The position numbers and the translations under genes are program-made. 64,000 nucleotides of DNA from Fibrobacteria bacterium (GTDB taxonomy: Bacteria; Fibrobacterota; Fibrobacteria; UBA11236). Under the pieces are notes generated by a model, which saw nothing but the letters and a program-made list of their open reading frames with translations, was not told the origin of the DNA and ran no database searches. The DNA is taken from NCBI GenBank assembly GCA_021155885.1, contig JAJNBB010000004.1:5725-69724 (forward strand), read 5' to 3'. Shown here piece by piece: positions 11,909 through 56,935 of the stretch. Position 1 is the stretch's first letter. Each line of letters opens with the position of its first letter.

Positions 11909-11944
11909 GCGCGGAGTGAAGCTGTATTTCTAAAAGGAGATGAT

Positions 11945-12028
11945 GTTGTTGGTTGTTGGTTGTTGGCCGGGAATCCAGATGCCGCATCCACGTGCGCTCT
12001 AACAACCAACAACCAACAACAAACAACC
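11945..12028. repeat. family A hairpin element copy 1: (GTTGTTGG)n / (CCAACAAC)n arms
   Basis: Left arm 11945-11966 is gttgttggttgttggttgttgg. It pairs with 11999-12020 over 22 bp (20 perfect, then one G-T and one G-C). The loop is about 32 nt and the right arm continues as aaacaacc. It sits between the convergent metR and pfkA genes. Confidence 0.85.
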
Positions 12029-12032
12029 TTCC

Positions 12033-54417: not shown

Positions 54418-55761
54418 ATGAGCGATTTACTCGCCGCTCGGGCGCAAATGGCCCTCTCCCTGGGATTCCACATCATTTTCGCCGCCATCGGCATGGCCAT
54501 GCCGTTCCTCATGGCCATCTCCCATTATCGCTGGATTCGCACCGGACGCCGGGTTTATCTCGATCTGACCAAGGCCTGGTCGCGCGGGGTCGCGATTTTC
54601 TTCGCCACCGGCGCGGTTTCGGGCACGGCCTTGTCCTTCGAACTGGGGCTGCTCTGGCCCGGTTTCATGGAGCATGCGGGCGCGGTGATCGGCATGCCGT
54701 TTTCCTGGGAGGGCACGGCTTTCTTCATCGAGGCTATCGCCTTGGGCCTGTTTCTCTATGGATGGAACCGCCTGAAGCCATGGACTCATTGGGCCGTGGG
54801 CCTGGTGGTGGGAATCTCCGGGGTCCTGTCCGGAGTGTTCGTGGTCTGCGCCAACGCCTGGATGAATAGCCCCGCGGGGTTCGACTGGGTCGCCGCGACG
54901 GCCTCCACTCCCGGGCACGCGATCAACATCGACCCCTTCCGTGCCATGTTCAACGATGCCTGGAAGGCCCAGACCCTGCACATGACGATCTCGGCCTTCG
55001 AGGCCACCGGCTTCGCGGTCGCGGGCATCCATGCCCTGCTCTTCCTGCGCAGGCCCTCACCCTTCCACCGCGAGGCGTTCACCATCGCGCTGGCCGTGGG
55101 CGCGATCGCCGCGATCGCGCAGCCGCTGAGCGGCGACCTTCTGGCGAAGGGCACGGCCGAGCGGCAGCCCATCAAGCTCGCGGCGATGGAATCGCACTTC
55201 GAGACCTCCGCCCGCGCGCCGCTCCTGATCGGCGGCATTCCCGACGAAAAAACCGGCACGGTTCGCTACGGGCTCGAAATCCCGGGCGCGCTGAGCTACC
55301 TCGCCCATGGCGACTTCAACGCCGAGGTCAAGGGCCTCAACGACTTCCCGCGCGAAAACTGGCCGCCCGTCGCGCCGGTGCATTACGCCTTTCAGATCAT
55401 GGTGGGGTGCGGCATGATCCTCGCGGGGATCGGGGCGCTCGGGCTTTTTCTGCTGGCGTTCAAGCGCTGGAGGCCGCTGCTGTATCACCGGCGTTACCTC
55501 GTCCCGTGCGTCCTCGCGACCCCCCTCGGGTTCATCGCGCTCGAGGCCGGGTGGACCGTCACCGAGGTCGGCCGGCAACCCTGGATCATCTATGGGGTCA
55601 TGCGCACGGCCGAGGCCGTCACGCCCATGCCGGGACTCGTAGTTCCCTTCCTGCTGTTCTCCGCCGTGTACGTGTTCCTTACGGGCGTCGTGACCTGGCT
55701 GCTATGGCGCCACATCGCCACGGTCGAGGAAAAGTACCCGTCGGCGCGGGAGGGAGCGTGA
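54418..55761 (+). CDS. cydA: cytochrome bd-type quinol oxidase subunit I
   Basis: LLAARAQMALSLGFHIIFAAIGMAMPFLM, GMPFSWEGTAFFIEAIALGLFLYGW and EVGRQPWIIYGVMRT are present. I trimmed the start from 54265. Confidence 0.93.
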   Translation: MSDLLAARAQMALSLGFHIIFAAIGMAMPFLMAISHYRWIRTGRRVYLDLTKAWSRGVAIFFATGAVSGTALSFELGLLWPGFMEHAGAVIGMPFSWEGTAFFIEAIALGLFLYGWNRLKPWTHWAVGLVVGISGVLSGVFVVCANAWMNSPAGFDWVAATASTPGHAINIDPFRAMFNDAWKAQTLHMTISAFEATGFAVAGIHALLFLRRPSPFHREAFTIALAVGAIAAIAQPLSGDLLAKGTAERQPIKLAAMESHFETSARAPLLIGGIPDEKTGTVRYGLEIPGALSYLAHGDFNAEVKGLNDFPRENWPPVAPVHYAFQIMVGCGMILAGIGALGLFLLAFKRWRPLLYHRRYLVPCVLATPLGFIALEAGWTVTEVGRQPWIIYGVMRTAEAVTPMPGLVVPFLLFSAVYVFLTGVVTWLLWRHIATVEEKYPSAREGA

Positions 55762-55768
55762 AGAAGAG

Positions 55769-55850
55769 GACGGGGGACGGGGGTCGGGGGTCGGGGGGGA
55801 GAAACATCACTCTCCTGTTTTCTCCCATCCCCCGACCCCCGTCCCCCGTC
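55769..55850. repeat. G5/C5-run inverted-repeat element, copy 2 (between cydA and cydB)
   Basis: gacgggggacgggggtcggggg (55769-55790) is the perfect reverse complement of cccccgacccccgtcccccgtc (55829-55850). That gives a 22-bp stem with a 38-nt loop. The element begins 8 nt after the cydA stop. Confidence 0.85.
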
Positions 55851-55909
55851 CAGCCCGCGAGGGCCTTCCGGTGAATTCTTTCCTCTCCCTACCCCCCGGC
55901 GAACCCTTG

Positions 55910-56935
55910 ATGCTCTTCGTCGTGATCGCCTTTCTGGGCGTGTCGCTTTTTCTGTACTGCCTCCTCGGCGGCGCGGATTTCGGCGCGGGCGTGCTCGAGC
56001 TGTTCCTGGGAAAATCGCGCCAGGAGGCGCAGAGGAAGATCATCGACAAGGCCATGGGCCCGGTGTGGGAGGCCAACCACATGTGGCTCATCCTCATGGT
56101 CGTGATCCTGTTCATGGGGTTTCCCGCCGTGTACACGCGCGTATCGGTGAACCTGCACATCCCGCTCACGGCCATGCTCGTCGGCATCATCGCGCGCGGG
56201 TGCTCGTTCACGTTCCGGCACTACGACGCGGTCAAGGGCCGCTCGCAGCGCGCCTACACGGCCTTCTTCGTGTTCTCGAGCGTCTGGACGCCGTTCTGCC
56301 TGGGCGTGGTGATGGGAGCCCTGGTTCCCGGCGGCATCGACCCCGCGGCGCGGGATTATGCGTCCGCCTACGTGTCGCCCTGGCTGCGGCCGTTCCCCCT
56401 CGCCCTCGGCCTGTTCACCGTGTGCCTGTTCACCTTCATCGCCGCGGTGTACCTGGTCGGCGAATGCCCCGGCGACGACGGGCTCCGCCGTTCGTTCGCC
56501 CGCAAGGCGCGCTGGGCCAGCGTGGCTTCCATCGTCTCCGGCTGGATCGTGTTCGCGGGCGCCCACGCCGACGGCGTCCCGCTGCTCGCGGAGTTCCTCG
56601 GGTTCGGCTGGGCCTTCGCCTTCATGACGGCCGCCACCGCGTGCTTCGGCGTGCTGTGGGTCGCGCTCTACCGCGACTGGATCTGGACCGCGCGCGTGAT
56701 GGTCGGCGCGCAGGTCGCCCTCATCCTCGCGGGCTGGTTCCAGGTGCAGCACCCCGTGCTGGTGCGCATGCCCGCCGGGGACCTCACGTTCTTCAACGCC
56801 CACGCGCCCGCCGCCACGCTCAATCAATTGGGCGGCGCGCTGCTCGTCGGGTCCGTCTTCATCCTCCCCGCCCTGCTGTGGCTCTTCCTCGTGTTCAAGA
56901 GCGAGGAGGGCGAGGAGAAGCCGGTGGTTGGGTAG
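55910..56935 (+). CDS. cydB: cytochrome bd-type quinol oxidase subunit II
   Basis: It begins MLFVVIAFLGVSLFLYCLLGGADFGAGVLELF and is multi-TM. An alternative GTG start is at 55871. Confidence 0.9.
   Translation: MLFVVIAFLGVSLFLYCLLGGADFGAGVLELFLGKSRQEAQRKIIDKAMGPVWEANHMWLILMVVILFMGFPAVYTRVSVNLHIPLTAMLVGIIARGCSFTFRHYDAVKGRSQRAYTAFFVFSSVWTPFCLGVVMGALVPGGIDPAARDYASAYVSPWLRPFPLALGLFTVCLFTFIAAVYLVGECPGDDGLRRSFARKARWASVASIVSGWIVFAGAHADGVPLLAEFLGFGWAFAFMTAATACFGVLWVALYRDWIWTARVMVGAQVALILAGWFQVQHPVLVRMPAGDLTFFNAHAPAATLNQLGGALLVGSVFILPALLWLFLVFKSEEGEEKPVVG

Follow-up and report, generated by a model that had tools for sequence, protein, structure and literature searches.

A probable copy of a genome-wide heptamer-array hairpin class at the cydA-cydB junction of a Fibrobacteria genome

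The spacer between cydA and cydB, which encode the two subunits of cytochrome bd oxidase in a Fibrobacteria metagenome-assembled genome (MAG), is probably a gene-less copy of a class of heptamer-array hairpins found throughout that genome. According to the reading favored here, which is held with moderate confidence, this copy is a selfish or neutral insertion tolerated by the operon. Its transcript would fold first as a G-quadruplex (G4) and then as a hairpin, stop/start coupling between the cistrons would be lost, and the stem would probably be processed by RNase III. The stretch of DNA analyzed, referred to as the window, is 64,000 nucleotides long and belongs to a MAG of 2.59 Mb in 101 contigs, with 64.6% GC and 87.5% completeness.

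CydAB is a 1:1 complex, and the junction offers an example of an obligate two-subunit operon that appears to tolerate the loss of stop/start coupling. The genus as a whole forms a comparative series, including species that have the repeats and others that lack them, heptamers that differ from species to species, and one and the same junction that is either empty or differently filled. It also provides a candidate partner gene for heptamer arrays, PF05635, each gene of which lies inside its own heptamer type. Heptanucleotide repeats are known from cyanobacteria and have since been found in Xanthomonas as well, with neither function nor origin assigned.

Anatomy and origin of the cydA-cydB spacer

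The cydA gene, encoding subunit I (PF01654, E 6.8e-141), occupies positions 54418-55761 of the forward strand and specifies the C-terminus YPSAREGA, followed by a TGA stop codon at 55759-55761. The 447-aa gene call of two independent contigs (L197 and L198) maps onto the same interval. The cydB gene, encoding subunit II (354 aa; PF02322, E 3e-64), extends from GTG 55871 to 56935 on the same strand. The 109-nt spacer between the cydA stop and the cydB start is filled by an inverted repeat of GGGGGWC heptamers.

All parts of the junction are described here as read on the forward strand. The left copy of a 5-nt direct repeat, GTGAA (55758-55762), contains a GTGA with the form of a start/stop overlap, comparable to the ATGA found at the empty sites of congeners. 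The purine-rich lead-in AGAAGA (55762-55767) resembles the left flanks of other family members, most of which carry a GAAGAG-like sequence. The G-arm (55768-55799; GGAC G5 AC G5 TC G5 TC G7), recognized by sequence, motif and repeat search, corresponds to about four GGGGGWC heptamers. It starts 6 nt past the cydA stop, and the perfect 22-nt repeat starts 7 nt past it, the genome-wide median being 4 nt. The loop (55800-55823) contributes its first part, together with 55795-55799, to an inner hairpin (55795-55816; stem GGGAGAAAC / GTTTTCTCCC), after which GTTTTCT follows. This inner hairpin was scored as terminator-like, with 7 pairs, including 2 G-U pairs, and then a run of only 4 T. The C-arm (55824-55851; CCCAT C5 GA C5 GT C5 GTCC) pairs with 55768-55795, and the repeat search gives a perfect stem of 23 bp (55768-55790 with 55829-55851) or a stem of 28 bp at 93% (55768-55795 with 55824-55851). 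The opposite strand of the element presents the G-runs G5, G5, G5 and G3. Downstream, a small predicted hairpin, GCCC-GCGA-GGGC (55853-55864), overlaps a Shine-Dalgarno-like GAGGG (55859-55863) located 7 nt upstream of GTG 55871. The right copy of GTGAA (55871-55875) provides, with its GTG, the start codon of cydB.

Much of this architecture had been recognized in a first-pass annotation, which placed the end of cydA at 55761 and the arms at 55769-55790 and 55829-55850, and these positions all hold. The perfect inverted repeat, reported there as 22 bp, is in fact 23 bp long, and the left arm does contain the four runs of at least five G, separated by 2-nt spacers. The 38-nt loop, described as pyrimidine-rich, deserves this description only in part, as it opens with the fourth G-run and holds the inner stem.

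Two start codons had been considered for cydB, GTG 55871 and ATG 55910, and homology of the N-terminal peptide supports the former. Because the peptide MNSFLSLPPGEPLMLFVV, encoded from GTG 55871, is homologous to congener CydB N-termini (MTPFFPPGEP, MMTRFFPPGEP), the start of cydB is assigned by homology to this GTG and not to ATG 55910. The N-termini in the congeners G009 and G005 read MTTFFPAGEP or MMTRFFPPGEP. A GGAG 7-8 nt upstream of the new cydB start is also present in the filled junctions of the congeners G001 and G011. Public start calls conflict with each other, with a Logan call at GTG 55871 (354 aa) and three JGI calls at ATG 55910 (341 aa).

The element is real and not an assembly artifact, since the junction is identical in independent assemblies. 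An exact-protein look-up revealed an identical CydB encoded by contigs from four other samples. In L197 and L198, which are independent assemblies from other samples, the junction is letter-identical, and in L199 it carries one SNP in the loop (55803 A>C). The element is fixed in the sampled population, without copy-number variation. An exact 24-mer search of metagenome contigs for junction alleles gave 0 matches. The samples behind L198, L199 and L200 are lake time-series metagenomes that contain this species. The fourth contig, L200 (JGI 3300045996), ends within the G-arm, in a run of 10 G, which indicates that heptamer elements break short-read assemblies; such breaks may bias MAG completeness nearby.

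The history of the spacer can be read from related genomes. The closest relatives of CydA, at 70-81% identity, come from MAGs labeled Fibrobacteria, several of which are congeners of the window's genome. Some record labels look wrong: the contig L001 (CAZKRC010000039.1), from a congener, is titled 'uncultured Bifidobacterium sp.', and a further CydA relative, L066, bears the title 'Enterobacteriaceae'. The junction is empty in G005, G006, G007 and G009, and in G005 and G009 the ATG of cydB overlaps the TGA of cydA (ATGA). Deleting the 113 nt between the GTGAA copies brings back a GTGA overlap in the cydB frame. Because congeners with an empty site have overlapping cydA and cydB genes, comparison of the sequences identifies the spacer as an insertion of about 113 nt into a former 4-nt stop/start overlap, which agrees with the original description of an element inserted between the two genes.

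Other congeners carry different elements at this junction, namely (GARTTAC)x4 hairpins in G001 and G011, (GGAATGA)x3-4 in G004, and a short GGGGTAA hairpin (GTCGGGGTAAGGGG / CCCCTTACCCCGAC) in G008. GARTTAC has 88-149 matches in G001, G010 and G011; the window's genome has none. The G008 hairpin (contigs L084/L001) is translated in frame as a 22-codon C-terminal extension of CydA, with the ATGA overlap retained. Since filled and empty states are interleaved on the CydB tree, the junction would either have been hit repeatedly or have gained an element once, followed by precise loss and swapping of the heptamer family. GTGAA flanks the cydAB copy, and across the genome the mean flank match is 3.97, compared with 3.82 in shuffled pairings; flank matches are no longer than in these pairings, which lends no support to target-site duplication as a general feature of the genome.

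A genome-wide hairpin class and the probable fate of the cydAB transcript

The cydAB element has many relatives in its own genome. When up to 2 mismatches are allowed, the window contains 11 occurrences of the three-heptamer motif GGGGGWCGGGGGWCGGGGG, where 0.02 would be expected. A genome search for the G5 arm motif recovered further copies, with 32 matches in the window's genome; the 11 congeners gave none, and among 29 further relatives a single genome gave 1 match. In a period scan of the genome, 218 arrays have a period of 7, while periods of 5, 6, 8 and 9 yield 52, 79, 0 and 8 arrays, respectively. Several heptamer families coexist, including GGTTGTT (71 arrays), GGGGGAC (20), GGGGGTT (12), AATGATG (12) and others. 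An inverted partner within 400 nt was found for 184 of the 218 arrays, which yields 149 paired elements, their median length being 103 nt. The order of the arms is strongly biased: for G/T-rich arms the partner lies to the right in 75 cases and to the left in 6, and for C/A-rich arms it lies to the left in 68 and to the right in 5.

Gene context, derived from a crude gene caller built for this analysis (2019 genes), places 132 of the 149 pairs in intergenic DNA: 78 between co-oriented, 32 between divergent and 22 between convergent genes. These intergenic pairs fill a median of 79% of the spacer and start a median of 4 nt past the stop codon. The placement of the cydAB copy close after a stop codon therefore follows a genome-wide rule and is not specific to cydAB. 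The loops of 25 G5 copies show no similarity beyond the arms, and the cydAB loop matches no other copy. Many loops of the GGTTGTT family (C63:28707-28816, C36:2566-2650) have in common a small GC-rich hairpin module, GCGGCCACCRGGCCGC.

The families differ in their potential to form G-quadruplexes. GGTTGTT, the commonest family of the genome, is represented in the window by a GGTTGTT/AACAACC hairpin at 11942-12029 (no strand assigned). Because its units contain no run of three or more G, the class as a whole is not characterized by strong G4 formation. Most arms of the G5 family contain only 2-3 runs of at least five G, and the cydAB G-arm, with four such runs, is the strongest in the family.

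The junction RNA is predicted to fold at -89.9 kcal/mol (z -6.3) and the junction DNA at -48 kcal/mol (z -7.0); none of 200 shuffles was as stable. Using the G4 model of ViennaRNA, the minimum for the full-length RNA is the hairpin, at -89.9 kcal/mol. The nascent RNA before the C-arm is predicted to adopt a five-layer G4 (-71.5 versus -23.7 kcal/mol), and so is the G-arm alone (-55 kcal/mol). The proposal that the element can form either a hairpin or a G-quadruplex is consequently plausible at the level of predicted folds, the hairpin at full length and the G4 in the nascent RNA. A search of Rfam with both strands found no family above the gathering score; the only sub-threshold matches, to miRNA-precursor models, reflect a generic long hairpin.

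According to the favored interpretation, the element would have arrived as a selfish or neutral repeat and been tolerated, without acting as a dedicated regulator. During transcription of cydAB, the G-arm is predicted to fold first into a G-quadruplex. Synthesis of the C-arm would then allow the more stable hairpin to form, at about -90 kcal/mol and with a perfect stem of 23 bp. This hairpin would part the two cistrons and abolish stop/start coupling, so that cydB would have to initiate on its own, presumably at GTG 55871 behind GAGGG. Since a long perfect duplex is an RNase III-type substrate in intervening sequences, the operon mRNA is probably processed at this position. By the same analogy, the 23-bp stem is a likely RNase III site, and cleavage would leave cydA and cydB mRNA halves capped by stem remnants. 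The genome contains an rnc gene. Nothing indicates a function specific to cydAB, and conservation across samples could also mean that the element is useful.

The element might also influence the transcript in a different manner, as a partial terminator or as a REP-like 3'-end stabilizer of the malE-malF type. In this case, cydA mRNA would exceed cydB mRNA, either through the inner hairpin and its U-run or through a stem blocking exonucleases. REPs located between cistrons alter relative mRNA stability, as in the malEFG operon. Such a role would suit the position of the elements, a median of 4 nt past stop codons, as well as the terminator-like inner hairpin (55795-55816) with GTTTTCT, which is transcribed before the C-arm, and the small hairpins in many loops of other copies, some of which have T-runs. 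It is nevertheless unlikely. The inner stem, with 7 pairs of which 2 are G-U, is weak and followed by only 4 U, and the long stem has no U-tract after it. In addition, the G4 predicted for the nascent G-arm would sequester the 5' half of the inner stem, and 32 elements are located between divergent genes, a setting that calls for no terminator. Some termination could be produced by the weak inner hairpin and GTTTTCT.

Other sites of the family and the link to PF05635

A second hairpin of the G5 family lies at 169-267 on the forward strand, inside a GT9 glycosyltransferase (PF01075) ORF in which it is read in frame. Its kinship with the cydAB element, claimed earlier for an element at 171-267, is borne out by membership of the same family. 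The hairpin encodes a 33-aa stretch of the GT9 interdomain linker (ORF 3-686; whole ORF C24:5460-6410). The locus is present in all 11 congeners, where a single ORF is retained and the linker is variable. Related GWCGGNN heptamer hairpins are found at this position in the orthologs of G009, G001 and G010. In the GT9 linker of G007, the same spot is occupied by a plain perfect 20-bp palindrome (TTGGCCCGGTAGGGGCAAAT / ATTTGCCCCTACCGGGCCAA). Together, the GT9-linker and cydAB comparisons lead to the conclusion that elements are retained at orthologous sites, with the two arms changing in concert.

The arrays are also associated with a protein family. Four genes of PF05635 (23S rRNA intervening-sequence protein; E 1.8e-38), with a low GC content of 0.48-0.53, are present in the window's genome at C4:1421-1918, C25:42788-43195, C15:41080-41490 and C63:14207-14596. 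All four lie within inverted heptamer arrays, and the heptamer family differs from gene to gene. The copy at C4:1421-1918, whose PF05635 protein is encoded at C4:1454-1831, has G5 arms together with (CCCCCGT)x12, the longest array in the genome. PF05635 denotes a four-helix-bundle protein not known to act as a transposase. The proteins found here show weak similarity, below the Pfam cut-off, to bAvd, a nucleic-acid-binding DGR accessory protein.

This association extends across the genus. PF05635 genes occur in 9 of its 12 genomes (the window's own and 8 of the 11 congeners), and most of those in congeners also lie within heptamer arrays, including GARTTAC-flanked genes in G001 and G011. Related PF05635 proteins are accompanied by related heptamers. 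Period-7 arrays reach 8.4 per 100 kb in the window's genome and 4.7 in G005, compared with 0.25, 0 and 0 in the PF05635-less G002, G006 and G007, where density was estimated from samples of 400, 260 and 140 kb, the congeners being partly sampled. The co-occurrence of PF05635 and heptamers may reflect a single clade split, and hence perhaps one evolutionary event, given the basal position of G006 and G007 in the CydB tree. No remnants of PF05635 were detected by blastx in the gene-less loops (E >=0.004), and the literature search yielded no link between PF05635 and heptamer arrays beyond the remark on heptamers in the paper on the Coxiella intervening sequence.

These observations suggest, tentatively, that gene-less heptamer hairpins may be non-autonomous partners of PF05635 (S23p/Avd-like) cassettes. 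Each paralog would recognize, preserve or propagate arrays built from its own 7-nt unit. If this is true, gene-less copies would colonize gene junctions, even splitting overlapping genes, as at cydAB, or entering protein linkers in frame.

The same arrays could, in principle, have grown in place without any insertion, by 7-nt polymerase slippage and hairpin-templated copying of local sequence. Several observations are consistent with such growth: there is no genome-wide sign of target duplication, the loops are unique, the junction heptamer of G004 (GAATGAG) includes the local ATGA of the stop/start overlap, the (CCCCCGT)x12 array shows that slippage happens, and the homologous heptamers in the GT9 linker drift between species in both arms. 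This origin is distinctly unlikely, however, because the same heptamer recurs at no fewer than 25 sites as well as in the arms around a PF05635 gene, and because heptamer families are species-specific yet common to all copies within a genome. Moreover, the entire 113 nt, including the loop, are missing at empty sites, and PF05635-less congeners, of which parts were sampled, are almost without arrays.

It is also rather improbable that the elements are DNA-level protein-binding arrays, perhaps for a PF05635 pentamer involved in chromosome organization or in replication and repair, with the RNA fold being irrelevant. This idea would account for an arm order that is strict and does not differ between strands, for a 7-nt unit that is kept while its sequence changes, for the individual heptamer of each PF05635 paralog and for the weak similarity to bAvd below the Pfam cut-off. 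The arms nevertheless stay complementary, which favors pairing and not array recognition alone, and several heptamer families have no resident PF05635 gene in this 87.5% complete assembly.

The role originally suggested, a dedicated post-transcriptional regulator of cydAB in which a cation- or redox-dependent switch between G4 and hairpin tunes the cydB:cydA ratio, is very improbable: the junction is empty in G005, G009, G006 and G007 and filled by heptamers without G-runs in G001, G011 and G004, the same architecture and placement recur as a genome-wide rule at about 150 unrelated junctions, unequal expression of a 1:1 complex has no obvious benefit, and the full-length hairpin lies about 18 kcal/mol below the best G4-containing nascent fold. 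It draws on the four runs of at least five G with 2-nt spacers, the strongest in the G5 family, on the G4 predicted in nascent RNA, on fixation of the element in independent samples, and on related G-rich heptamer oligonucleotides that form very stable K+-dependent G4s in vitro (PMC4692102).

Several known identities were considered and rejected. For REPIN/RAYT, there are 0 Y1 transposases (PF01797) in the genome, the 11 congeners gave only 3 weak matches, spread over 3 genomes, and loops are not shared. A MITE would call for an autonomous transposase relative, which was not found, and the gene-bearing relatives carry only PF05635. The cydAB copy, with a 24-38-nt loop and no ORF, is not an ORF-bearing intervening sequence, unlike C4:1421-1918. 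It is not an intrinsic terminator, as the long stem is followed by CAGCCCGCG, which contains no U-tract, and GTTTTCT occurs only after the weak inner hairpin. Integron attC sites, CRISPR and retrons were dropped on anatomy, the arm order not being attC-like and cassette ORFs or regular spacers being absent.

Relation to known repeat systems

The heptamer hairpins share with REP, BIME and REPIN elements and their RAYT transposases (PMC3116915, PMC2817692) their abundance in intergenic DNA, species-specific sequence and occasional location between cistrons. They differ in the absence of Y1/RAYT, in arms built of heptamer arrays instead of a fixed 20-35-nt imperfect palindrome, and in unconserved loops. 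Direct TAACTGA heptamer repeats have been described in Beggiatoaceae, Cyanobacteria and Bacteroidetes (MacGregor 2015, PMC4679880). These are likewise intergenic tandem heptamers near the boundaries of coding regions, but nearly all are direct, with one inverted set, and a single heptamer is found across phyla. Rickettsia palindromic elements are palindromes able to sit in frame in protein genes, with a conserved sequence of 100-150 bp and no heptamer periodicity. The 169-267 copy resembles them in lying in frame within the GT9 linker.

A closer parallel is provided by ORF-bearing intervening sequences (S23p/PF05635), with which the present class shares a long stem of terminal inverted repeats and heptamers, and the G5 family includes a copy enclosing PF05635. 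The intervening sequence in the 23S rRNA of Coxiella burnetii has a 28-bp stem that is cut by RNase III in vitro (Warrier et al. 2016, PMC4990558), and near its 5' end it carries GACAGAT heptameric repeats whose copy number varies between strains (PMC4990558). Unlike this sequence, the cydAB copy has no ORF and lies outside rRNA.

The best match is found in the arrays described by Rehm et al. 2015 (PMC4692102), which comprise convergent GGGAATC arrays in Xanthomonas campestris and X. axonopodis, with 70-75 inverted pairs per genome, and GGGGA(C/T)T arrays (STRR1) in Nostoc PCC 7120. The Xanthomonas arrays are overrepresented in non-coding DNA, between co-oriented ORFs and within 50 bp of stop codons; about four units are preferred, G4s form in vitro, and competition between G4 and stem-loop was remarked upon (PMC4692102). 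Both systems consist of tandem G-tract 7-nt units, repeated about four times and arranged as a convergent pair near a stop codon, and in both, related species carry arrays of differing length and sequence at the same intergenic sites. The present arrays differ in that they belong to another lineage, comprise several heptamer families per genome, mostly not G-rich, vary in heptamer between congeners, and have an almost invariable arm order and a linkage to PF05635. Their copies also split an overlapping gene pair or sit in frame inside a gene.

The cydAB element is thus a variant of Rehm-type inverted heptamer arrays in a new lineage. What is new here is the multiplicity of species-specific heptamer families, the strict arm order, the link to PF05635, and insertion into an overlapping gene pair and a protein linker. 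If the partnership with PF05635 cassettes is true, one mechanism would connect the cyanobacterial STRRs and Xanthomonas GGGAATC arrays, the ORF-bearing intervening sequences of 23S rRNA and the junction hairpins, with RNase III cleavage of the stems as their shared consequence at the RNA level.
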